From a virus (lineage: Duplodnaviria; Heunggongvirae; Uroviricota; Caudoviricetes), in the IMG/VR virus record IMGVR_UViG_2529292726_000021: DNA of 42,272 bases; one strand, 5' to 3'. Positions within the stretch are counted from its first letter, which is position 1. Every line of letters begins with the position of its first letter. The notes below the pieces were generated by a model, which did no database searches, was not told the origin of the DNA, and saw only the letters and a list, made by a program, of their open reading frames with translations. Shown piece after piece: positions 1 to 41,950 of the stretch. A program made the position numbers and the translations under genes.

Positions 1-1149
1 AAAGATATCGTTTACTTCCACAGCCTGTTCTGGCCTGCCATGCTGGAAGGCAGCAACTTCCGCAAGCCGACCAACCTGTTTGTTCATGGCTATGTGACGG
101 TGAACGGCGCGAAGATGTCCAAGTCTCGCGGCACCTTTATTAAAGCCAGCACCTGGCTGAATCATTTTGACGCCGACAGCCTGCGTTACTACTACACTGC
201 GAAACTCTCTTCGCGCATTGATGATATCGATCTCAATCTGGAAGATTTCGTTCAGCGTGTGAATGCCGATATCGTTAACAAAGTGGTTAACCTGGCCTCC
301 CGTAATGCAGGCTTTATCAACAAGCGTTTTGACGGCGTGCTGGCAAGCGAACTGGCTGACCCGCAACTGTACAAAACCTTTACTGATGCCGCTGAAGTGA
401 TTGGCGAAGCATGGGAAAGCCGCGAATTTGGCAAAGCTATCCGTGAAATCATGGCACTGGCTGACCTGGCTAACCGCTATGTTGATGAACAGGCTCCGTG
501 GGTGGTGGCGAAGCAGGAAGGACGCGATGCCGATCTGCAGGCGATTTGCTCTATGGGCATTAACCTGTTCCGCGTGCTGATGACGTACCTGAAACCGGTA
601 CTGCCGAAACTGACTGAACGTGCAGAAGCATTCCTGAATACAGAACTGACCTGGGATGGTATCCAGCAACCGCTGCTGGGCCATAAAGTGAATCCGTTCA
701 AGGCACTGTATAACCGTATCGATATGAAACAGGTGGAAGCACTGGTGGAAGCATCCAAAGAAGAAGTGAAAGCCACAGCTGCACCGGTAACTGGCCCACT
801 GGCTGACGACCCGATTCAGGAAACCATCACCTTTGACGACTTCGCCAAAGTTGACCTGCGTGTGGCGCTGATTGAAAACGCGGAGTTTGTCGAAGGTTCT
901 GACAAACTGCTGCGCCTGACGCTGGATCTCGGTGGTGAAAAACGTAATGTCTTCTCAGGCATTCGTTCCGCTTATCCAGATCCACAGGCACTGATTGGTC
1001 GTCACACCATTATGGTGGCTAACCTGGCACCGCGTAAAATGCGCTTCGGTATCTCCGAAGGCATGGTGATGGCTGCTGGCCCTGGCGGAAAAGATATCTT
1101 CCTGTTAAGCCCGGATGCTGGTGCTAAACCAGGCCACCAGGTTAAGTAA
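1..1149 (+). CDS. metG: methionyl-tRNA synthetase, C-terminal part (5' end outside window)
   Basis: Frame open from position 1 to TAA at 1147-1149; translation (KMSKSRGTF ... AKPGHQVK) recognised as enterobacterial MetG C-terminal region. Confidence 0.95.
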
Positions 1150-8655: not shown

Positions 8656-9174
8656 TTAAAACGGAAGGATTCGTTCAACCCAATCGAAGAAAATAAGTAT
8701 TTTTCTACCGTCTTCCAACTTAAGTGTGACTAGACAGGCGTCAACGCCATCTGACGTTCCCTCAATTTCGCGACCGTCTGCCATGTAGACCCTTATAGAT
8801 TTGCCGTTTTGGTAAGCCTGACGACATATCTTAAAAAAGTCACGACGTGATGGCTGATTAACCATCTGTTCATTGTTTAGCGTTAGTCGACCTGTGAATG
8901 AAGTGTCAACCTCTTCTATGCCCGACTCAATTGTGCTAATGCGCTCAAGAGGGAGCCTTATACGATTTGTGTTGCTAAGCGGATCTGGTGTGAGGTTCAG
9001 CTTATTTCTTGCGCTCAATAGCCCGTAGACATACATGCAAAACACTTGGCCGTCTTCGAGAGTGACTCTTACAGGAAATTTTGCACTCCGCCAGAAGAGC
9101 AAGGTGCGCTCAGCATGTTCGTAGTCTCGCGGCCAGACTTCAGCCGGTATGCCGTAGGTGATGTCTTTAACCAT
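8656..9174 (-). CDS. hypothetical protein (172 aa) with internal repeat
   Basis: ATG with AAGG upstream; two related segments (VRVTLEDGQVFCMYVY and VTLKLEDGRKILIFFDWV). Confidence 0.55.
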   Translation of the reverse strand: MVKDITYGIPAEVWPRDYEHAERTLLFWRSAKFPVRVTLEDGQVFCMYVYGLLSARNKLNLTPDPLSNTNRIRLPLERISTIESGIEEVDTSFTGRLTLNNEQMVNQPSRRDFFKICRQAYQNGKSIRVYMADGREIEGTSDGVDACLVTLKLEDGRKILIFFDWVERILPF

Positions 9175-12204: not shown

Positions 12205-13764
12205 CTAATCTCGTTTCAGAACTCCAAAATCGAATGCGCCATCAATAGGCAATACACCTTCCGCAAAGCCAGGTGTGGTGTCGATGATGTGTTTTCGCTC
12301 ATAAGAGTGAGACAACAGGTATTTGTTGCTAATGTCAATGAAATCAGTGATAAAACACACGTTTGCCTGATTCTTCTTGGCTCGTAAGCCACGACCGACA
12401 CGCTGCCTCATTTCAACTTCTGCTTTCCCACCACCAGCAAGAATGACCGCACCAACGCTTGGCACATCAACACCGACATCCAGAATAGTCGAGCCTATTA
12501 AAACATCTATTTCGCCAGACGCTAAACTGTTCAGCTTTGCTTGCCTTGTCGACTGGTTCGATTCCCCATAAATGAAGTCAACTCTAAGGCCGGACTCTTT
12601 CATCATTTCCATCAGGATTTGCCCGTGGCGTTTAAGACGAACCAGAGTCATACAATTGAGAGAATGTTGCTTATAGAGCAATGCTTCGCGAACAATGGCC
12701 TCATTACGTCCCAAATTATACACGATCCCCAACTGATAAGCCTTTTGGTAGGCGGTGCTCATACCAACTCTAAAATTGAGGTGTTTGTTGGCAAGTTCTG
12801 CCTTGATTCTGGCCTCGTCCGGCTTGTAGGCAACTTTATGATAAAGGAAGTATGGTTTTGCCAGAATGCCTCGATCAATCAGGTACTTTTCTGTGACTTT
12901 AATTTCAATTCGCCCGGCCACAGCCATCAGACGCATGTTGGCTTCTGTAGAATCCTTCATGAACGGCGTGGCCGTAAGCGCCAGACGATAGTCTGCGTTC
13001 ACACATAATCTGGCAATGTCATAGAAATTAGAACCTGAAGACTCATGCGCCTCTTCCAGAATAAGCAGAGACACACTTGAAAGGAAGCGTTTCACCAAGT
13101 CCCGACGTTTGAGGTGGTAGCTCTTCTTATCTGGAGTTGCATCGCGTGGTGGTTCTTCAAGGAAACTTGCCAGAGTTTGAACTGTAGCGACGTTGATATG
13201 TCGTGATACCTGGAACTCACCAGAGCCAATGACTCCAACCTTTTGGTCTTTTAACCACGGTTCGCCATTTTCGGCGCGGTAGTCGATGGATCTCTGGAAG
13301 TTTTCGGCCATCTGAAACATCAGAACAGAGCGAGTTGTTAAAAATAATGTCATTCGACCGATACGTGCAGCCGCTTTGCAGGCAACATTAGATTTCCCGC
13401 CACCAGTAGCGATCTGCGCAATCATCATTCCCTCTCGAACCAGTGTTTCCACAGTCTGATCCTGATACGCATAATCAGGATTGTATGGGAATGGGTTAAC
13501 CGCCGGATTTGGTTTACCAAGCGCCGGGGCTTTGTCTTTGCGGATATGAACACATTTGATGCCCGCCTTGTTCAAGTTCGCCGCTACAGGCTTGGCAAAG
13601 CCAGCAGGGAACGAGTTTTTACTCCAGTTGAACATTGTGCTTGTGCCCTTCCAGTCGCCAGTCTCGACTTCGTAGCTCAACATCTGTTGCACCAGTTGCT
13701 TTACCTTGTCATCTGCGCCAGAAATAAGCGCATTAACTGCGTTAGATACAATCCGAACAGTCAT
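12205..13764 (-). CDS. superfamily 2 DNA helicase (DEAH-type)
   Basis: Motif I ATGGGKS, motif II LEEAH, motif III TATP, motif VI RVGRGLR in order; AAGGAAAGAGG upstream of ATG. Confidence 0.75.
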   Translation of the reverse strand: MTVRIVSNAVNALISGADDKVKQLVQQMLSYEVETGDWKGTSTMFNWSKNSFPAGFAKPVAANLNKAGIKCVHIRKDKAPALGKPNPAVNPFPYNPDYAYQDQTVETLVREGMMIAQIATGGGKSNVACKAAARIGRMTLFLTTRSVLMFQMAENFQRSIDYRAENGEPWLKDQKVGVIGSGEFQVSRHINVATVQTLASFLEEPPRDATPDKKSYHLKRRDLVKRFLSSVSLLILEEAHESSGSNFYDIARLCVNADYRLALTATPFMKDSTEANMRLMAVAGRIEIKVTEKYLIDRGILAKPYFLYHKVAYKPDEARIKAELANKHLNFRVGMSTAYQKAYQLGIVYNLGRNEAIVREALLYKQHSLNCMTLVRLKRHGQILMEMMKESGLRVDFIYGESNQSTRQAKLNSLASGEIDVLIGSTILDVGVDVPSVGAVILAGGGKAEVEMRQRVGRGLRAKKNQANVCFITDFIDISNKYLLSHSYERKHIIDTTPGFAEGVLPIDGAFDFGVLKRD

Positions 13765-13846
13765 AAACCTCTTTCCTTAGTGCCTTTTGTATGTTATTTG
13801 GCTATTATAATAAGTAAGTGATTACTTAGTGGATTGTAGCAATAAA

Positions 13847-14527
13847 ATGGATGTAAAAATCACGATTTTGCAGGTTGATGTTGCCAACCTTCGCCCGAAT
13901 ACCTGGAACACCAATTCGGTTGGTGCGCAGAATTTTGAAAAACTGAAAGGTTCTATCGAAAAATTGGGCTTTTTTAAGCCAATTTTGGCTCGTGAACTTG
14001 AAGATGGATTTTTTGAAATCCTCGGCGGCGAACATCGCTGGCGTGCCGCTATTGAGCAAGGAATTTCAACGGTTCCAGTGCTTTCTGTGGGCAAAATTAG
14101 CGATGTCGTAGCTAAACAGATGTCACTGGTGGACAACGAGCGATACGGTGAAGACGACCAAATCGCATTGCAACGCTTCATTGAAGAAATTCAGTCAGAA
14201 CTTGACTATCAACTGTCTGAAATCGCCCCGTATGACGACGAAATCTCGATGGTTTTAGCAAAAGAGGCGGCAATCGACCTTGAAGCACTGGAGGCGTTGT
14301 CTCGTGGTAGTGATGAGCCTGTCGATACCGACAAACGAGAGAAAACCGAACGTGTCGGTGCGGAACATCAGACCATGCGCTTCAAAGTAACTTTCGATGC
14401 GTCAGATCGCGTTGCAGAAACCATAAAAAACATCATCAAAGAGCAGGCTATTAACACCGGTAATGAAATGGAGAACGCTGGTGAGGCTCTGGTGTGGCTG
14501 GTCGACTACTACAAGGAGCGTATGTAA
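13847..14527 (+). CDS. ParB-like N-terminal domain protein
   Basis: GGEHRWRAA resembles the ParB/sulfiredoxin GxxRxxA box; start ambiguous (GTG 13829 or ATG 13847). Confidence 0.55.
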   Translation: MDVKITILQVDVANLRPNTWNTNSVGAQNFEKLKGSIEKLGFFKPILARELEDGFFEILGGEHRWRAAIEQGISTVPVLSVGKISDVVAKQMSLVDNERYGEDDQIALQRFIEEIQSELDYQLSEIAPYDDEISMVLAKEAAIDLEALEALSRGSDEPVDTDKREKTERVGAEHQTMRFKVTFDASDRVAETIKNIIKEQAINTGNEMENAGEALVWLVDYYKERM

Positions 14528-15195
14528 TGACCAAAAAGTTTGAAATCGTATATCGCGACCCGGCAGATCTTATTCCCTATGAGATGAATGCCAAAAAGCA
14601 TGATGAACAGCAGATCAGAGATCTGGCCGCAGCCATTAAAAAGCGCGGATTTGACCAGCCAATTACGGTCGATAAGAACGACGTAATTATTACTGGCCAC
14701 GGCCTCCGTGAGGCTGCAATTTTTGCTGGACTTGAGCGCGTACCGGTTATTGTTCGTGATGATCTGAGTGATGACGAGGTACGTGCAAAGCGCCTTGAAG
14801 ATAACCGACTTGCCAGCATTGATTACGATGCAATTAAGCTACAGAAAGAGCTTGAGTCGCTTGTTCTGGACGATATCGAGGTTTTCGGCTTCGAAGAGCG
14901 TGAGTTGAATGTTCTCGTTGGCAGTATGACAGAAGAAATGGACACCGACTCGCTAGTTATCGATCTTGGCGAAGAAACTAAACGACAGAAGGATGAACAC
15001 ACCGAGATCAGTCGTGAAGTTGCAGCGGAAGAAGTACGTGTTGTCGACGTATTGGGCTTTAAAACGCTTCCTGCTGGCTCTGCCATTGTTGTTGGTGATT
15101 TGCTTGCCCACATGGAAGAAATGACGGGAGAAAGCGGGGTAGACGCATTTGTGGCATATGCGGAGAAGATCTCTTCCGGGGAGATGGCTGCATGA
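14527..15195 (+). CDS. second ParB-like domain protein
   Basis: TGHGLREAA box; ATG overlaps the preceding stop (TAATG); track start 14494 would overlap the upstream gene. Confidence 0.5.
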   Translation: MTKKFEIVYRDPADLIPYEMNAKKHDEQQIRDLAAAIKKRGFDQPITVDKNDVIITGHGLREAAIFAGLERVPVIVRDDLSDDEVRAKRLEDNRLASIDYDAIKLQKELESLVLDDIEVFGFEERELNVLVGSMTEEMDTDSLVIDLGEETKRQKDEHTEISREVAAEEVRVVDVLGFKTLPAGSAIVVGDLLAHMEEMTGESGVDAFVAYAEKISSGEMAA

Positions 15196-15857
15196 GCAAA
15201 TACATCATCAACGTATCGTTTCAGACACGCGTAAATAAAACCACGCGCACGTTGGAAATCGCTGAGTCGTTCGGGCTTGGCCTGGACGAAAAAGAGTGGA
15301 CGCTTTACGACAATCTGGAGCTGGAAGTGAAGCAGGGCGATGTGGTGTACATCACCGGCCAATCCGGTTCCGGCAAATCCGTTGTGCTGCGCGAGTTGCA
15401 ACGACAGATGAAGGATGAAGGGCTGTCTGTAGCCTCCATCGATGATTTTACCTTCGATAATGAGGTTAACGTCATCGATCAGTTGGGCAAAACGACCAGT
15501 GATGCGCTTGGGTTGTTATCTATGGCTGGTCTGAACGATGCATATCTGTTTGTTCGCAAGCCTTCTGAAATGTCAGACGGCCAGAAATATCGTCTCAAGA
15601 TTGCCAAACTGATTGAGTCAGGCGCTAAAGTATGGGCTGCTGACGAGTTCGGCGCTGTTCTAGACCGTGTAACCGCTCAGGTTGTGGCGTCTAACCTCCA
15701 GCGTGCCGCTCGAAAGGTTGGTGCGACGGTAATGGTGGCGACGACTCACGAAGACCTGAAGAACGCGCTGCGCCCGGATATGCAGATCACCAAGCACTAC
15801 AAAGAACGCGTGAAGGTGGAATATCACAATGGTAGTCATGATGAGGTCCATTCATGA
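15192..15857 (+). CDS. compact ABC-type ATPase (221 aa)
   Basis: Walker A GQSGSGKS, signature-like SDGQ, Walker B VWAADEFG, H-loop ATTHED; ATGA overlap with upstream gene. Confidence 0.65.
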   Translation: MSKYIINVSFQTRVNKTTRTLEIAESFGLGLDEKEWTLYDNLELEVKQGDVVYITGQSGSGKSVVLRELQRQMKDEGLSVASIDDFTFDNEVNVIDQLGKTTSDALGLLSMAGLNDAYLFVRKPSEMSDGQKYRLKIAKLIESGAKVWAADEFGAVLDRVTAQVVASNLQRAARKVGATVMVATTHEDLKNALRPDMQITKHYKERVKVEYHNGSHDEVHS

Positions 15858-16744
15858 CGGACATCATCATTAAACGCTACCGCCCTGAAGAGTTTCCGCG
15901 TCATCTGGACTTTCTGGAGCGAATGACTGTTACAAAGGGAACTGTAGAGGACTGGCACGCTCTTAAGTCGCTTCACTACAAAACAGACGGCAAACCTTTC
16001 GCGCCAACTTACTATCGCTGCGAACTTGATGACCGTCTGGTGGGCGTCGTGGTTATGGCTTACCCGAAACTACTGCTGGCACCTCGCCACCGCATGTTTC
16101 CTAAGTTGAAACCAACCACTAATACCACCGTGGCTAACCAGTACTGGGGTCGGTACGTGAATAACAACTTTGCGGTGATCAGTCGCTCAGTTGTGGATAC
16201 TCAGTATCGTGGCGTAGGCGTCTCTTATCGAATGATTAACCTGGTTAGCAGGATGCATGACCGGCCAATCATTGAGATCCAGTCCTCGATGAGCAAATAC
16301 AATCCCTTCGCCATGAAAGCAGGGTTTAAGTTCATCCGCCCTGAGCGACCGAAGAGCTATGAAAGTGCACTGCGTGTATTCCAGCGCCATTTTCGTTCCG
16401 ACCCGGGTGATAACGAGGCGATCGTCAAAGAGTTGTTCGCAATGAGCGAGTCTCGTCGTCGCCGTGCACTGCGTGATCTGGTGGCGGACTACCATAAGAA
16501 CAGTTCCCTGGCAAAAGCTGGGCGGAATCGTGGCACGACGATTCAGGACATTGCCGACAGTCTGGTGGACGAGGCCAGCATTGTGAAGTTGCTCAAGGAC
16601 ATTCACAACCTGAGCTTTACGTCTCCGTTGTATGGGGTGTATCGAAACCCTGACTTTGGTCGTCGACTGCCTGACACGCTGCCACTGCTGGCATTCGACA
16701 AACAACCTTTGGATAAACCGTTAGAAATTGCTTTACCGGCATAA
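15854..16744 (+). CDS. GNAT-like acetyltransferase-fold protein with C-terminal extension (296 aa)
   Basis: VVDTQYRGVGVSYRMINLV fits GNAT motif A (Q/R-x-x-G-x-G/A); ATGA overlap with the ATPase gene. Confidence 0.45.
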   Translation: MTDIIIKRYRPEEFPRHLDFLERMTVTKGTVEDWHALKSLHYKTDGKPFAPTYYRCELDDRLVGVVVMAYPKLLLAPRHRMFPKLKPTTNTTVANQYWGRYVNNNFAVISRSVVDTQYRGVGVSYRMINLVSRMHDRPIIEIQSSMSKYNPFAMKAGFKFIRPERPKSYESALRVFQRHFRSDPGDNEAIVKELFAMSESRRRRALRDLVADYHKNSSLAKAGRNRGTTIQDIADSLVDEASIVKLLKDIHNLSFTSPLYGVYRNPDFGRRLPDTLPLLAFDKQPLDKPLEIALPA

Positions 16745-16753
16745 GGATTTGCC

Positions 16754-17020
16754 ATGACGTTAACCGATAAACAAAAGGACATCATCAAAACGCTCAATCT
16801 CGGTTATGAGCGAGGTCATCTACTTGATCTGGACGAATTGCTTGAAGTTTTGCCGTACAAGACAACCAAGCAAAGTATCCAGTTCTCAATTCGCGCTCTG
16901 ATAAAAAAGGGGCTTGTGGAGAAAGGGCATACGCGCCAACGCAGTGACAATCGCTATCACCGCCGAACTCTTGGGTTAACCACTTTAGGTCGAGCCAAAG
17001 CGAAGTTACTGGTGATGTAA
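16754..17020 (+). CDS. small basic protein, possible winged-helix DNA-binding protein (88 aa)
   Basis: ATG with AAGGA upstream; basic C-terminus; fold assignment is a guess. Confidence 0.45.
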   Translation: MTLTDKQKDIIKTLNLGYERGHLLDLDELLEVLPYKTTKQSIQFSIRALIKKGLVEKGHTRQRSDNRYHRRTLGLTTLGRAKAKLLVM

Positions 17021-17022
17021 TC

Positions 17023-17121
17023 GGTCTGGGAGCTTATTTAAAGACCTGCTTCTGTATATATAAATAATAAGTAACTTATTAAATATATACGGAAGCAGGC
17101 TTAATAAGACATGCCCAGACC
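17023..17121. repeat. ~100-bp imperfect inverted repeat
   Basis: Outer arms GGTCTGGG / CCCAGACC; inner arms CCTGCTTCtGTATATAT / ATATACgGAAGCAGG around central AATAAGTAACTTATT. Confidence 0.6.
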
Positions 17122-17134
17122 TAATTAAACACCC

Positions 17135-17196
17135 CAGAAAACAAGTTGGTTAGCATACGCAGTAAACAAGTTGTTTTAGAGCGCATGGACGCGCTC
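17135..17196 (+). promoter_or_regulatory. tandem early-type motifs plus hairpin upstream of terminase genes
   Basis: CAGAAAACAAGTTGGTTAG (17135-17153), GTAAACAAGTTGTTTTAGAG (17162-17181), then GAGCGC-atggac-GCGCTC hairpin. Confidence 0.5.
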
Positions 17197-17216
17197 TGTG
17201 TGTTTTAGAGGGATCT

Positions 17217-17849
17217 ATGACGGTCGAAAAAGACGAGGTAAAAACTCGCCTGACACCAGCGGAGTGGGCCGAAGCTGAAGCCAAATGGACGTCAGGCGAA
17301 TATACACTCTCAAAGCTGGAGGAAGAGTACGGCATTCGTCGTGAAACACTCTCCAGACATTTCAAAAAGCGAGGATTAGAGAAAGGCGCGGACTCTGTTG
17401 GGAAGATGGTTCGTGAGTCTCTTAAATCTGACGCAGAGCTTCGCGCTAAAGCCCGTGCGGAAAAGATAGAAGAACGTCGTACACGTTATGACGGCTGGGC
17501 GTATGCGTTGGGGCAGATGGTGATGGTCGAAGTCACTACGGCCAAACGTGAGGGTAAGTCTTTAGGGGCGATTGAGGATTCTCTCAAGAGCTTACAGAGA
17601 GCCAGTAATACCCTTGCAAAATGCTTTGAAGTTTCGTCCAAAGCATTGGGCATGGATCATGCGGAAAATGACGAGGAAGAAATTCCGAACCTGGTATTTG
17701 GTGAGCTTACGCCTTCCCAGGTGGCGAAATTACGTCAGGAAGACGACGAGCCTGAAATCATCGATGACGAATTGCTTGAGACGTTGGAAGAAGAAGCTCT
17801 AAGCGAATTTGATGCGACAGATGATGGAAGTGAAGGGGAGGACGAATAA
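17217..17849 (+). CDS. terminase small subunit (putative)
   Basis: N-terminal HTH-like segment (TLSKLEEEYGIRRETLSRHFKKRG), acidic C-terminal tail, stop overlaps start of the large subunit. Confidence 0.6.
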   Translation: MTVEKDEVKTRLTPAEWAEAEAKWTSGEYTLSKLEEEYGIRRETLSRHFKKRGLEKGADSVGKMVRESLKSDAELRAKARAEKIEERRTRYDGWAYALGQMVMVEVTTAKREGKSLGAIEDSLKSLQRASNTLAKCFEVSSKALGMDHAENDEEEIPNLVFGELTPSQVAKLRQEDDEPEIIDDELLETLEEEALSEFDATDDGSEGEDE

Positions 17850-19105
17850 TGGCAATCCCGTCCTCGCTCAGTCTTGTGCAACTGCATTCTGGACAGATGA
17901 AAGTCTTCCAGTCTCCGCATCGATTTAAAGTTGTTTGTGCTGGTCGACGCTGGGGAAAATCCCGGTTGTCGATCTCCACTATTATTCGTGCGGCGGCAAA
18001 GGAAAAAAAGCAAAGGGTCTGGTATGTCGCTCCTACTTACCAGATGGCTCGCCAGATTTTGTGGGACGATCTACAGGAAGTTCTGCCTCGTAAGTGGGTT
18101 AGGAAAAAGAACGACACCACGATGACAATCGTGTTGAAGAACGGTTCGGAGATCGCCCTCAAAGGTGCTGATAAGCCTGACACTCTGCGCGGCGTAGCGT
18201 TGCATTTTGTAGTGCTTGATGAATTTCAGGATATGAAGGCTGACACCTGGTACAAGGTGTTACGACCTACTCTTTCATCGACACGCGGCGGTGCACTGAT
18301 CATTGGTACGCCAAAAGGCTTCTCGGAATTTCACAAACTGTGGACTATAGGCCAGAACGTAGAGCTGCAAAGAAAGGGACAGTGGAAGAGCTGGCAGTTT
18401 GTAACTGCCGATTCTCCGTTTGTGCCTACGGCGGAAATTGAAGCTGCTAAGAACGATATGGACCCGAAATCGTTCGCTCAGGAGTACCTGGCGAGCTTTG
18501 AGAACATGTCCGGGCGCGTTTACTACCCGTTCGATCGTAACGTGCATGTAAAACCGCTTCAGTTCAACCCTCGGTTGCCTATATGGGTAGGGCAGGACTT
18601 CAACATTGACCCGATGTCTTCAGTAATTTTGCAACCTCAGCCAAATGGTGAGCTATGGGCAATTGATGAATTGGTGCTCTTTTCCTCTAACACGGCAGAA
18701 GTTTGTGATGAGCTTGAGAGACGCTTCTGGCGCTGGAAATCACAGATAACGGTATTTCCAGATCCGGCAGGTGCTTATCGCCAACATGCTCGCGGGGAGT
18801 CTGACGTCGACATATTCAAAGAGAAGGGATTCTTACGTGTCGATTATTCGAAAAAGCCCCCGCCAATTGCGGATCGTGTTAATGCTGTTAACCGAATGCT
18901 GATGACCGCATCTGGAGATATCCGGCTGTATATCGATCCGAAGTGCAAGCATTTGATTGATTCACTGGAAAAAGTCATCTACAAGCCTGGAACACGAGAT
19001 ATGGATAAGACAGGTGGCATTGAGCATAGTGCAGACGCATTGGGCTATCCAGTACATCGTAGGTATCCAGTCAAAAACCGTGTTATTCTTGGTGGCTCTC
19101 GATAG
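17849..19105 (+). CDS. terminase large subunit
   Basis: Walker A-like GRRWGKS, Walker B VVLDEF, size 418 aa, position before portal. Confidence 0.85.
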   Translation: MAIPSSLSLVQLHSGQMKVFQSPHRFKVVCAGRRWGKSRLSISTIIRAAAKEKKQRVWYVAPTYQMARQILWDDLQEVLPRKWVRKKNDTTMTIVLKNGSEIALKGADKPDTLRGVALHFVVLDEFQDMKADTWYKVLRPTLSSTRGGALIIGTPKGFSEFHKLWTIGQNVELQRKGQWKSWQFVTADSPFVPTAEIEAAKNDMDPKSFAQEYLASFENMSGRVYYPFDRNVHVKPLQFNPRLPIWVGQDFNIDPMSSVILQPQPNGELWAIDELVLFSSNTAEVCDELERRFWRWKSQITVFPDPAGAYRQHARGESDVDIFKEKGFLRVDYSKKPPPIADRVNAVNRMLMTASGDIRLYIDPKCKHLIDSLEKVIYKPGTRDMDKTGGIEHSADALGYPVHRRYPVKNRVILGGSR

Positions 19106-19131: not shown

Positions 19132-20706
19132 ATGGAATTGAACGACAAACAAATTAAGGATCTGGTGGCGCGACGCCACCCGGAATACGAAAAGAAAAAA
19201 GAACATTGGGACTTCCTCGCCAGCACTTACGCTGGCGGGCGTGGTTGGTTTACAGACAATATCTTTCGTTACTTTAAAGAGGGAGATCAGGAGTTTAAGG
19301 AGCGAGTTGAACGTGCTTATCGCTTCAACCACACTCGTGAGGTGGTAAACCTCATCAACAAATATCTCTTTAAAGAAGACATTCATAGAAATATCGAAGA
19401 GGCACCAGAGCAGATCCGCAATTTCTGGAAACGTGCGACTCGCCAGAATGCCTCTATTGACTCATTTATGGCCGCTATTGATTTGCAGTCGTCTATTTAC
19501 GGTCGCATATGGGTTGTTGTCGATAGCACGATGAGTGGTGATGTTGAGTCAGTAGCTGACGAGAAAAAGAAAGATGCTCGCGCCTACGCCTACTGGATTT
19601 CACCTCAGCAAATGCTGGATGTGGCATGGGACGACGACGGGAATATGTTGTGGGCGTTAATTGTGGAAGTCGCTCGTGATGACGCAGATCCTTTTACTTC
19701 TACAGGTCAGGAATCCCAACGTTATCGTCTGTGGACACAAAACGAGTGGTATCTGTTCCGTGAGGAAGTGAAGAAGGGCGCTGGTGGAGCAGGTCGCCGT
19801 CAGGCAAAAGTTATTTTAGAGGATAGCGGTGAGCATAATCTCGGCGTAGTTCCTGTGTTTCCTGTTGATTGTATTGGAGAAAGTGAATCACCGTATTTCA
19901 GCCCATCGTTGATCGATGATATCGCTTATCTTGATCGTGCGGTTGCAAACTATCTGTCAAACCTTGATGCCATTATTCAGGATCAGACATTTAGCCAGTT
20001 GGCTATACCAGTACAGTCGCTTTTACCTGGTGATGAAAACCACACTAAAGTGCTTGAAATGGGCACAAAGCGAGTCTTCACCTACGATTCTGAAGGTGGA
20101 AACCAGCCGTTTTATCTGTCACCAGACCCGAAACAAGCTCAGATGATCATCACTACGATTAAGACGGTGATTAACGAAATCTACCATTCAGTTGGTGTAG
20201 CTGGTGAGCGAACGAAGCAGGACAACGCACAGGGAATCGATAATTCATCTGGTGCCGCAAAAATGTATGACTTCCAGCGTGTAAATAGCTTGCTTGTCAC
20301 AAAAGCAGAGCGTCTGGAAAGGGCTGAACGCCAAATCATGCTACTGGTTGCGAAATGGATGGGGGTAGATCTGGACGAAGACCACTCTTTAATTGCGTAT
20401 CCAGAAAGTTTCGATATTCGTGGCCTCACAGATGAATTTTCTGTTGCCGAGAAACTATCATTACTTCAGGCACCGGACTCTGTACGTCGTCACCAGATGG
20501 AAATGCTTATTGAGAAGATTTTCCCGAACATTACTGAGGCGATGAAAAAGGAATTTGATAAAGATCTCTTGAATTTTCCGCCAAAAAATGATCTAAATAC
20601 CCTTGAAAATAAGTCAGTACTTACCTATGATCGTGGTGTGGCCCAAGAAAGCGGGCAAGATCAACCCCGAGGGAATGGGGACTCATCTACTCAAGAGAAC
20701 GAGTGA
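19132..20706 (+). CDS. portal protein (putative)
   Basis: 524 aa, directly downstream of the terminase large subunit and upstream of scaffold and capsid. Confidence 0.65.
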   Translation: MELNDKQIKDLVARRHPEYEKKKEHWDFLASTYAGGRGWFTDNIFRYFKEGDQEFKERVERAYRFNHTREVVNLINKYLFKEDIHRNIEEAPEQIRNFWKRATRQNASIDSFMAAIDLQSSIYGRIWVVVDSTMSGDVESVADEKKKDARAYAYWISPQQMLDVAWDDDGNMLWALIVEVARDDADPFTSTGQESQRYRLWTQNEWYLFREEVKKGAGGAGRRQAKVILEDSGEHNLGVVPVFPVDCIGESESPYFSPSLIDDIAYLDRAVANYLSNLDAIIQDQTFSQLAIPVQSLLPGDENHTKVLEMGTKRVFTYDSEGGNQPFYLSPDPKQAQMIITTIKTVINEIYHSVGVAGERTKQDNAQGIDNSSGAAKMYDFQRVNSLLVTKAERLERAERQIMLLVAKWMGVDLDEDHSLIAYPESFDIRGLTDEFSVAEKLSLLQAPDSVRRHQMEMLIEKIFPNITEAMKKEFDKDLLNFPPKNDLNTLENKSVLTYDRGVAQESGQDQPRGNGDSSTQENE

Positions 20707-39590: not shown

Positions 39591-41950
39591 ATGTGGTACA
39601 GGGAAGGTACTATCACATTTACACAGGGTAGCAATACTCTGGTTGGGGCAGGGACAGCCTGGAACGTAACAGCTAATGGTGTGTTGCCGGGGATGATCGT
39701 CATTGGCCCCGACAATAAGCTGTATGAGATCAAGCGCGTAACCAGTGATACGAACATTGTTCTCTCAGAACCTTATACCGGCGAAACTCAGTCTGAAGTT
39801 CCGTGCCGAATCATTACGACCTATGAAGGCGACTTAACACAGTTTAGCGCGCGCTTTACTGCGCTAATGTCGCGTATGTCGGCTGATTCCAAGTCCATAC
39901 GCAGTTGGTTGACTGCGCTGGATGAGGTGACAATCGAGCGTGAAGACGGTACAGAAGTGACCGTTAAGCCGCTAATGCAGATCGTCAACGAGCACAACGA
40001 AAACGTTGAGTGGTATAAAAATAACACTGACGCGATTGATGCTGCTGGCGACAAAGCTCGTGAGGCGGCGGCCAGTGCTGCCGCAGCAGCCAAAAGCGCC
40101 AATGCCGCTGGAGAAAAAGCCTCTCAAGCGTCTCAAAGTGCATCCGCTGCGGCATCCTCACAAAGTGCCGCAAGTGCGAGTGCAACTGCTGCGAAAAAAT
40201 CTGAAACGAATGCTGCAGCGTCACAAAAATCTGCAGCCACTTCTGCATCCACCGCGACCACGAAGGCGTCAGAAGCTGCCACCTCAGCCCGGGATGCGGC
40301 GGCCTCAAAAGAGGCAGCGAAATCATCAGAAACGAGCGCAGCCTCGAGCGCCAGTAATGCCGCTTCCTCGGCAACGGCGGCAGGAAATTCCGCGAAGGCG
40401 GCAAAAACGTCCGAGACGAACGCCAGGTCTTCTGAAACGGCAGCGGGACAGAGCGCCTCGGCTGCGGCAGGCTCAAAAACAGCGGCTGCGTCGTCTGCCA
40501 GTGCCGCGTCAACAAGTGCCGGGCAGGCCTCAGCCAGTGCCACCGCCGCCGGAAAATCGGCAGAAAGTGCCGCATCGTCTGCTTCAACTGCCACAACGAA
40601 GGCTGGCCAAGCCACTGAACAGGCCAGCGCAGCAGCGAGGTCTGCTTCCGCAGCGAAGACATCCGAAACGAACGCGAAAGCGTCGGAAACCCGTGCAGAA
40701 TCCTCAAAAACGGCAGCCGCATCGTCCGCCAGTTCGGCGGCGTCATCGGCATCATCGGCGTCTGCTTCAAAAGATGAGGCGACCAGACAGGCGTCAGCAG
40801 CGAAGGGCAGCGCCACGACGGCATCCACGAAAGCAACAGAGGCGGCAGGCAGTGCGACGGCAGCATCTCAGAGCAAAACTGCTGCTGAATCCGCTGCGAC
40901 CCGTGCGGAAGCTGCTGCTGATCGTGCTGAAGAGATTGCCGGTGCAGTTGCGATGGAAGACGCAAGCCTTACAACTAAAGGTGTTGTGAAACTTAGCAGT
41001 GCTGTCGACAGCACCAGTGAATCGCTGGCCGCAACGCCAAAAGCAGTTAAAGCAGCCAATGACAATGCGAATAGCAGGGTGCCATCTAACCGAAAAGTTA
41101 ACGGTAAAGCACTGACTGCGGATATCAAATTAACGCCGAAAGATATTGGTACTTTAAATTCAGTAACGATGTCTTTCTCTGGCGGGGCAGGGTGGTTCAA
41201 ACTGGCTACGGTTACCATGCCACAAGCGAGTTCCATCGTTTACATCGCATTGATTGGTGGCGCTGGTTACAACGTCGGCTCCCCACATCAGGCAGGCATT
41301 TCAGAACTGGTTCTACGAGCAGGCAATGGAAACCCCAAAGGGATTACAGGTGCTTTGTGGAAGCGTACAGCTGTCGGATTAACGAATTTCGCCTGGATCA
41401 ACACATCCGGCGATACATATGATATTTACGTTGAGATTGGCAATTATGCGACTCGTGTAAATATCCATTGGGATTGTACTGCAAATGCGACAGTTTCTAT
41501 TTATACATCGCCAACATATTCAGCGAGTAAGCCTTCCAGCGTTACCGATGGTGTTGTTTATACGATGTATAGCACACATCAGAAACCGACGCCGTTAGAT
41601 ATTGGAGCACTGCCAACAACCGGAGGAACAGTTTCAGGTCCGTTGTCTGTTACAGGTGGATTAACTGGTTCATTGAATGGTAATGCAAGTACAGCCACGA
41701 AATTGCAGACGGCAAGATCTATCGGTGGAGTTGTTTTCGACGGTTCTGCAAATATTAACCTTCCAGGTGTAAACACTACGGGTAATCAGAACACCACTGG
41801 TAATGCTGCAACTGCTACAAAACTTCAGACGGCAAGAACTATCGGCGGCGTGAGCTTTGATGGTACTGCGAATATTAATTTGCCAGGTGTTAATACGACT
41901 GGTAATCAGAACACAACGGGCAACGCGGCTACTGCTACGAAGTTGCAGAC
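39591..41950 (+). pseudogene. side tail fibre (Stf-like) gene truncated at the 3' end by IS2
   Basis: ATG with AAGGAG upstream; long Ala/Ser-rich repeat region with recurring KTSETNA units; TKLQTAR(S/T)IGGV...NTTGNQNTTGNAATA repeats; frame runs into the IS2 end at 41951. Confidence 0.75.

Follow-up and report, generated by a model that had tools for sequence, protein, structure and literature searches.

A GNAT acyltransferase coupled to an ABC ATPase was predicted by Iyer et al. to acylate a DNA base, with phage pT24 given as an example (PMC7824862). Here we describe a gene cassette of this kind in a 42,272-nucleotide (nt) stretch of tailed-virus DNA, the IMG/VR record IMGVR_UViG_2529292726_000021, the whole of which is hereafter called the window. 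The cassette encodes two ParB-like proteins (ParB-A and ParB-B), a soluble ABC ATPase, a GNAT-fold acyltransferase-like protein and a small winged helix-turn-helix (wHTH) protein. It is a split form, with two ParB paralogues, of the computationally recognised module, and it is the SSU5-lineage form of a widespread tailed-virus module in which ParB/Srx-like proteins and an ABC ATPase-GNAT stand at the head of the packaging genes. The folds and motifs of the proteins, the split/fusion relationship, the synteny and the conservation were established for this locus itself. The function that we favour, with a rough probability of 0.45, is that of a lytic-cycle DNA-acylation machine.

The cassette was compared with several described systems. 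COG2401-type ABC-GNAT proteins have homologous halves, gene order and phage association in common with it; they are, however, single fused proteins, whereas the cassette has two overlapping genes in their place, along with two ParB/Srx paralogues and the wHTH protein. Phage ParB homologues that consist of a nucleotide-binding and a C-terminal domain, without an obvious DNA-binding domain, were shown experimentally to be required by their cognate thymine dioxygenase on double-stranded DNA (O'Toole et al. 2026, PMC13229309). In these 5mYOX/ParB pairs, the gene for a ParB without a DNA-binding domain adjoins that of a DNA-modifying enzyme (PMC13229309). The ParB-B model is alike; the partner in the pairs is an Fe/2-oxoglutarate dioxygenase, whereas that of the cassette is an ABC-GNAT, and the likeness is one of architecture. 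Phage ParB-DNA methyltransferase fusions (phrog_498) have an N-terminal ParB domain homologous to ParB-B, but carry a methyltransferase domain where the catalytic unit of the cassette is ABC plus GNAT. Such ParB-methyltransferase genes tend to occur near terminase genes. TmcA/NAT10 combine an ATPase module with a GNAT to acetylate RNA cytidine; their ATPase is a helicase-type P-loop domain accompanied by DUF1726 and tRNA-binding domains, and their substrate is RNA. A Pfam scan of the cassette proteins returned no TmcA/NAT10-type DUF1726, helicase-type P-loop or tRNA-binding domains. Mu Mom is a GNAT-fold DNA adenine methylcarbamoylase that has neither an ABC nor a ParB partner. Membership of the Mom clade was rejected, as hhalign of A1 and A2 against Mu Mom gave probabilities of 0.3% and 2.3%, respectively, and the likeness is structural only. 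Finally, ParABS systems have the ParB_N fold and a GERRxRA-like box in common with ParB-A, but possess ParA and a helix-turn-helix (HTH) domain, whereas the cassette has no ParA, the ParB-B model has no HTH, and the genes also occur in phages that are not known as plasmids.

Gene coupling and composition of the cassette

Over positions 13700–17100, the window was 98–99% identical in nucleotide sequence to Escherichia phages Cyrano (= pLF82), PhiR41_1 and CMS-2020a; its identity was 85% with Salmonella phage SSU5 and ~81% with Klebsiella phage-plasmids, indicating that it belongs to an SSU5-type E. coli phage-plasmid. The recorded host of the close relative PhiR41_1 is E. coli K-12 MG1655. A sequence-only reading of the window had picked out the first four cassette genes as translationally coupled, and their coordinates (Table 1) and start/stop overlaps proved exact when the sequence was re-checked. 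ParB-A and ParB-B meet at TAATG (14525–14529), in which TAA and ATG have one base in common, and both the ParB-B/ABC and the ABC/GNAT junctions are ATGA (15192–15195 and 15854–15857). Each of these starts lies 7–10 nt downstream of a GGAG/GAGG-type ribosome-binding site, and the ParB-A start at 13847 agrees with the coding sequence annotated in PhiR41_1 and Cyrano, two independent public annotations. Greedy gene calling over the whole window gave 41 pairs of same-strand neighbours, of which only 5 showed 1- or 4-nt overlaps; three of the five are cassette junctions and one is the TerS/TerL junction, so that the cassette run is distinctive within the genome. From the overlaps, the same reading had deduced co-translation and a probable complex; the coupling is not kept in relatives, whose ABC and GNAT genes, or whose two ParB genes, are parted by one to three small genes, and a complex with the ParB-like proteins is putative. 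All four genes are real, and the block includes a fifth, the wHTH gene, which starts 9 nt past the GNAT gene. The neighbourhood is that of the packaging genes as first described, but the cassette does not abut them, a 196-nt intergenic region intervening.

The domain calls held as well, with Pfam ParB_N in the first two genes, ABC_tran in the third and a GNAT fold in the fourth. The ABC protein matched Pfam ABC_tran with an E value of 6e-13 (50 bits) and has all catalytic motifs of the ABC ATPase superfamily, namely Walker A GQSGSGKS (56), the signature MSDGQ (127), Walker B VWAADE with its catalytic Glu (147) and the H-switch TTH (184). No membrane permease partner or domain was found in the cassette or its relatives. 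With no membrane-protein gene and with a GNAT as the fusion partner, the protein is wrongly called an 'ABC transporter' in databases; this label and 'partition protein' are routinely attached to genes of the module. The PADLOC matches of the ABC gene (mad3, mad8 and PtuA) are generic P-loop matches and were discarded.

The fourth protein has the GNAT fold, with a Pfam GNAT match below threshold (E = 0.037). At the motif A position (RGVGVS), R119 and G122 are invariant in its family and the final residue is Ser here; at the motif B position (NPFAMKAGF), N150 and G157 are invariant and A153 and F158 near-invariant. An H41-Y42-K43 motif is also invariant. A sequence search of PDB with the profile gave no meaningful match, and NCBIfam and PADLOC gave none. 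When the profile was searched against 1.8 billion representative proteins, 896 relatives were obtained. Beyond a phage family of ~290 amino acids, most of these are 440–500 amino acids long, with the GNAT-like domain at about residues 200–480 and an N-terminal half that is an ABC ATPase with 40–50% identity to the third cassette protein (~60 fused proteins). The GNAT profile matches the C-terminal halves of fused proteins at E values of 1e-15 to 1e-27; the fused relatives have a canonical motif A, RGIGLG, and some match Pfam GNAT models directly. Both cassette proteins are thus homologous to halves of the fused ABC-GNAT family, in ABC-then-GNAT order, but are encoded here by two genes with an ATGA overlap in place of a single polypeptide. 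In addition, tblastn of the fused protein P0202 spans both the ABC and the GNAT gene of SSU5. Because the two are fused in hundreds of relatives, the third and fourth genes almost certainly encode one enzyme or machine.

The JGI and Cyrano annotations of the fourth gene, 'ABC-type ATPase fused to predicted acetyltransferase domain' / 'MK0520', are the COG2401 name. Note that single phage fused proteins aligned to the GNAT profile by hhalign with a probability of only 53–73%; they are assigned to the family because of the bridging fused family and the Pfam GNAT matches. Some fused-family relatives carry further domains: P0163 has a LAGLIDADG intein within its ABC domain, P0181 and P0207 have a family-B DNA polymerase at the N terminus, and P0154 has a TFIIB repeat at the C terminus. 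These additions hint at DNA-related roles, but could be gene-calling artefacts.

Both ParB-like proteins have the N-terminal Srx-like fold and GxxRxxA-type motif of the ParB/Srx superfamily. ParB-A (Pfam ParB_N, E = 3.2e-13; phrog_723, E = 1e-78) can be aligned to the CTP-binding/CTPase domain of Spo0J, ParB and Noc, and its box II, GEHRWRA, is near the ParB CTP-binding motif GERRxRA. The corresponding motif of ParB-B is GHGLREA, where relatives have GHGRR; G57-H58-G59 is invariant in the family and R60 near-invariant, at least 90% of 35 homologues keeping Arg. The isoelectric points (pI) of ParB-A and ParB-B are 4.55 and 4.49, and their C-terminal halves are strongly acidic, with net charges of −14 and −20. 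Residues 3–154 of ParB-B match the ParB domain with which phage ParB-methyltransferase fusions begin (phrog_498, E = 1e-29; PADLOC MTase_II PDLC03229, E = 6e-16). Its model consists of a nucleotide-binding-type domain and a C-terminal domain without a DNA-binding domain, and no canonical ParB HTH was found in it.

Taken as ParB centromere-binding proteins with a motor ATPase, the genes might form a plasmid partition or replication set, as two ParB_N proteins adjoin an ATPase on a phage-plasmid and ParB-A retains a near-canonical GEHRWRA box. However, the HTH that recognises parS and the cognate ParA with its deviant Walker A motif, which mark a canonical partition ParB, were not found; the ATPase is of the ABC type, with a GNAT fused to it in relatives, an HTH is missing from the ParB-B model, and the two ParB proteins are strongly acidic. 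The same block also occurs in phages deposited as linear virion isolates (nickie, RHEph10 and BUCTxx99) and in 295-kb and 3.3-Mb contigs resembling integrated prophages. Moreover, a list of the Cyrano genes with transcription above local background in the E. coli LF82 lysogen includes the MinD/ParA-like CYRAN_99, but CYRAN_119–123, the Cyrano orthologues of the cassette genes, are absent from it. A partition role is therefore essentially excluded by the non-plasmid carriers, the presence of ABC in place of ParA and the lack of an HTH in ParB-B.

Conservation and distribution of the module

The cassette is part of a nine-gene block, in which a helicase gene on the opposite strand is followed by the genes for ParB-A, ParB-B, ABC, GNAT, wHTH, TerS, TerL and portal. 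The block is syntenic in the SSU5 group, Pseudomonas phage nickie, Rhizobium phage RHEph10, Stenotrophomonas phage BUCTxx99 and Xanthomonas phage JGB6, and also in three contigs, one from Ectothiorhodospira, one metagenomic of 3.3 Mb and one marine, with 30–60% protein identity over the block members. The four genes first noted in the window thus recur together across the genomes of this SSU5/Nickie/RHEph10 supergroup. Within the supergroup, identities were 53–59% for ABC, 56–62% for TerL and 46–55% for portal, and 34–47% for GNAT, 29–39% for ParB-A and 32–43% for ParB-B; that is, the ABC gene is conserved on a par with TerL and portal.

Outside the supergroup, a fused ABC-GNAT gene is overlapped by one ParB-B-type gene just 5′ of TerS/TerL in Pasteurella phage Pmp13, Leptospira phage LE4, Streptococcus phage phiNIH1.1 and Gordonia phage Axumite, and in planctomycete phages, too, a ParB-like gene and ABC-GNAT stand by the terminase. 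ParB-B is the orthologue type of this single ParB-like gene. The pairing had been taken for a non-standard one, which was wrong: ParB-like plus ABC-GNAT by the terminase recurs in all these phages, and the module had already been recognised computationally. A one-genome-per-species scan with the fused family gave mostly Bathyarchaeia/Thermoproteota and Planctomycetota, and ABC-GNAT by TerL is also recurrent in archaeal (Bathyarchaeia) proviruses. As judged by neighbour clustering and Pfam, TerL lies within 1.5 kb of the fused gene at 19 of the 35 archaeal genome loci and 16 of the 26 bacterial ones, and ParB_N within the same distance at nine bacterial and no archaeal loci. In all, the module stands by the terminase in phages of Proteobacteria, Firmicutes, Actinobacteria, Spirochaetes, Bacteroidota and Planctomycetota, as well as in archaeal proviruses.

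IMG/VR holds >455 relatives, and distances to contig ends were counted in 80 of these loci (L094–L173). Less than 1.5 kb of contig followed the fused gene in 43 of the 80, whereas less than 1.5 kb preceded it in none. Less than 500 bp remained past the gene in 29, and about two dozen of these share a similar remainder of 170–290 bp. As the contig is often short downstream and never short upstream, the fused gene usually seems to lie last, where a viral genome or provirus stops, which suggests a defined genome or provirus end directly past it.

In two carriers of the fused gene, Axumite and the Mu-like Burkholderia phage phiE255, an Fmt-like Formyl_trans_N gene (~205–215 amino acids) lies directly 3′ of the fused gene and overlaps it. 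The ABC-GNAT/formyltransferase pair of phiE255 is located 3′ of the tail-fibre genes, the position of mom in Mu. The Axumite gene is annotated as 'tRNA-methyltransferase', a label that looks wrong. In phiNIH1.1, an ASCH-domain gene (p26, L090:5999–6376) is found between the ParB/ABC(-GNAT) and terminase genes. It has been proposed that ASCH domains read modified bases, and the E. coli protein YqfB is a hydrolase of N4-acylcytosines.

The main rival to DNA acylation is a packaging accessory that cooperates with the terminase where packaging starts. The ParB/Srx proteins would then be nucleotide switches or nucleases, like HNH proteins for HK97-type terminases, and the ABC-GNAT would license or regulate packaging by remodelling or acetylating a DNA-bound protein, be it terminase, portal or a nucleoid protein of the host. 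Such a role is favoured by the distances to TerL, the position of the fused gene just 5′ of TerS/TerL in Pmp13, LE4, phiNIH1.1 and Axumite, its place at genome or provirus ends, and the conservation of ABC at the level of TerL and portal; the cassette also adjoins a palindromic region where the public SSU5 and Cyrano records open. Terminase adjacency alone is unspecific, however, because DNA methylase genes likewise cluster near terminase genes. In addition, the TerS candidate of the window is already coupled to TerL, the phiE255 gene pair stands past the tail-fibre genes and away from the terminase, and small-molecule chemistry on nucleic acid is suggested by the recurrent formyltransferase and ASCH partners as well as by the analogy with ParB-methyltransferase fusions. 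On balance, we consider a packaging accessory unlikely.

Genes for Tad2-like proteins (DUF2829, Thoeris anti-defence 2) and/or N4 gp49/Sf6 gp66-family proteins were found in or just 5′ of the cassette in three lineages (Table 1), and locus L003 additionally carries an RyR-domain gene at the insertion. Their presence in RHEph10, L003 and Pmp13 would suit a host-takeover or anti-defence enzyme, whose ABC-GNAT would acetylate a host defence protein, RNA polymerase, the ribosome or tRNA. The Fmt-like formyltransferase and ASCH partners could equally mean RNA or tRNA chemistry, and ribosome-binding ABC-F factors are among the soluble ABC proteins. AcrVA5 and the tRNA-acetylating GNAT toxins are precedents for GNATs directed at protein or RNA. 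Rac of phiKMV is a further precedent for a host-takeover acetyltransferase (PMC7824862). On the other hand, core-gene-level conservation and fixed synteny are unusual among anti-defence genes, the experimental precedent of a ParB/Srx partnership is DNA modification, and the PADLOC matches are weak only. An early takeover role is also at odds with the position of the genes next to the late packaging genes and with their absence from the list of genes transcribed in lysogeny. A takeover or anti-defence role is, in our estimation, quite improbable.

The DNA-acylation reading

For the DNA-acylation machine, we infer a DNA substrate, an acyl donor, a timing and subunit roles, including those of the ParB-like and wHTH proteins, as follows. 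The module would be made in the lytic cycle and would acylate a base of phage DNA post-replicatively, before or during packaging. The basic GNAT protein would move an acyl group from an acyl-CoA-type donor to the base, and the ABC ATPase, through ATP-driven dimerisation, might clamp the DNA or make the base accessible, in the manner of the ATPase module in TmcA/NAT10. The acidic ParB/Srx pair, devoid of a canonical DNA-binding domain, may act as nucleotide-dependent activators or clamps that enable action on duplex DNA, as in the ParB-thymine-dioxygenase pairs, and the small wHTH protein may anchor or target the complex on DNA.

Several findings are consistent with DNA acylation. The GNAT fold carries conserved residues at the motif A and motif B positions (R119, G122, N150 and G157), and the GNAT and wHTH proteins are basic (net charges of +15 and +9), as expected of nucleic-acid binders. 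The fused gene is joined to modification-type enzymes (Formyl_trans_N and ASCH) in unrelated phages, and Mom and Mom-endonuclease-like proteins were among the closest viral structure matches. The ABC gene of pT24 is matched by the fused family, and the suggestion of a candidate DNA-modification system, made from the window alone, agrees with the published computational prediction (PMC7824862). The homology of ParB-B to the domain that phages fuse to DNA methyltransferases, the experimental precedent of the ParB-dependent thymine dioxygenases and the absence of CYRAN_119–123 from the LF82 lysogeny list also accord with this reading. In the literature, we found no experimental study of the ABC-GNAT module or of base acylation by the family, and no functional study of COG2401, of the SSU5 ParB genes or of the association of ParB-like, terminase and ABC genes; papers on LE3/LE4 and on Thaumarchaeota mobile elements contain annotation lists only. 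A paper on 'nicked phage DNA' was set aside because it concerns an unrelated phage group.

Other points weigh against DNA acylation. To our knowledge, no modified base has been reported for the SSU5-like, P335-like, streptococcal or Gordonia carriers despite routine sequencing and digestion. The GNAT fold leaves the acceptor unspecified, and the likeness to Mom is at the fold level only. In ParB-B of this E. coli lineage the near-invariant R60 is replaced by Leu, which may weaken nucleotide binding, and both ParB-like proteins, with pI values of 4.5, are unlikely to contact DNA directly. Furthermore, TerL-like conservation and strict terminase synteny in viruses of both bacteria and archaea fit a core packaging function better than a typical fast-turnover anti-restriction gene.

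A broader form of the DNA-acylation reading, in which ParB/Srx plus ABC-GNAT would be the packaging-linked DNA-acylation machine of a large fraction of bacterial and archaeal tailed viruses and would produce a novel acyl base, is tentative and rather doubtful. If it is true, phage groups that have been studied well contain a common DNA modification that escaped notice, the acyl modification would be further formylated in lineages with an added formyltransferase, and the function would be a core one, conserved like the terminase, in the SSU5/Nickie/RHEph10 supergroup. Either outcome, DNA modification or terminase accessory, would explain what these core genes do in a large group of viruses. Because the window belongs to an E. 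coli phage-plasmid and the host of PhiR41_1 is K-12 MG1655, both the decade-old prediction of an acyl modification and the idea of ParB as an activator are directly testable.

Flanking regions and other features of the window

Coordinates of the cassette, its neighbours and the accessory genes found at related loci are collected in Table 1.

Table 1. Positions of the cassette genes, flanking features and genes accompanying the module in relatives (positions are those of the window unless a locus is named)
Feature	Coordinates	Strand	Remarks
SF2 (superfamily 2; UvsW/DEAD-type) helicase	12205..13764	−	Pfam ResIII/DEAD/Helicase_C; divergently transcribed
Divergent intergenic region, helicase/ParB-A	13765..13846		82 nt; presumed promoter region
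ParB-A	13847..14527	+	226 amino acids; ParB/Srx N-terminal domain and acidic C-terminal half
ParB-B	14527..15195	+	222 amino acids; ParB/Srx domain and helical acidic C-terminal domain
Soluble ABC ATPase	15192..15857	+	221 amino acids; corresponds to N-terminal half of fused ABC-GNAT proteins
GNAT-fold acyltransferase-like protein	15854..16744	+	296 amino acids; pI 9.8; net charge +15; helical/small-beta C-terminal domain; corresponds to C-terminal half of fused ABC-GNAT proteins
wHTH protein, fifth cassette gene	16754..17020	+	88 amino acids; basic, winged-helix-like; pI 10.2
Intergenic region, cassette/terminase	17021..17216		196 nt; palindromes and terminator-like hairpin
TerS-like	17217..17849	+	phrog_867, Cyrano annotation, synteny
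TerL	17849..19105	+	Cyrano annotation, synteny
Portal	19132..20706	+	Cyrano annotation, synteny
Tad2-like/gp49_66 insertions	L177:4893-5195; L003:6961-7335; L088:3341-3898		L177, RHEph10; L088, Pmp13
Formyl_trans_N genes	L092:1805-2452; L093:5044-5658		Axumite gp3; phiE255 gp30

The helicase gene lies divergently 5′ of ParB-A in every supergroup locus, with 40–52% identity. A simple sigma-70 scan of the region between the two gave no match, so that we can only infer its promoter role. The wHTH gene (phrog_900, E = 2e-45; weak matches to LexA_DNA_bind, Sta1 and Lrs14) is 3′ of the GNAT gene in all supergroup loci, and overlaps the GNAT stop in L003, L004, nickie and BUCTxx99. The region between the cassette and the terminase genes contains an AT-rich palindrome at 17057–17089 with arms at 17057–17072 and 17074–17089, flanked by the inverted repeats GGTCTGGG...CCCAGACC (~17023–17121); a terminator-like hairpin follows at 17177–17198, just 5′ of the TerS start. 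As publicly deposited, the linear sequences of Cyrano and SSU5 stop at window positions ~17082 and ~17081, respectively, both within the palindrome. These ends may mark a packaging or terminus site, or may be mere annotation convention.

The window starts inside a methionyl-tRNA synthetase (MetRS) gene (1–1149, plus strand), which is annotated as MetRS in Cyrano. What is encoded is the last part of the class I catalytic domain together with the MetRS anticodon-binding domain and a tRNA_bind domain, and the phage-plasmid thus bears an aminoacyl-tRNA synthetase. A gene at 8656–9174 on the minus strand encodes a 172-amino-acid protein that matches the Pfam family 'Repressor of phase-1 flagellin' (FljA-like, E = 1e-68). 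It lies in a low-GC stretch (GC content of 0.36–0.40 over ~7–12 kb versus 0.45–0.50 elsewhere) and is probably an acquired host-modulating gene. Finally, the tail-fibre region at 40001–41000 shows a local GC peak of 0.594 with a strong AT skew of 0.31.

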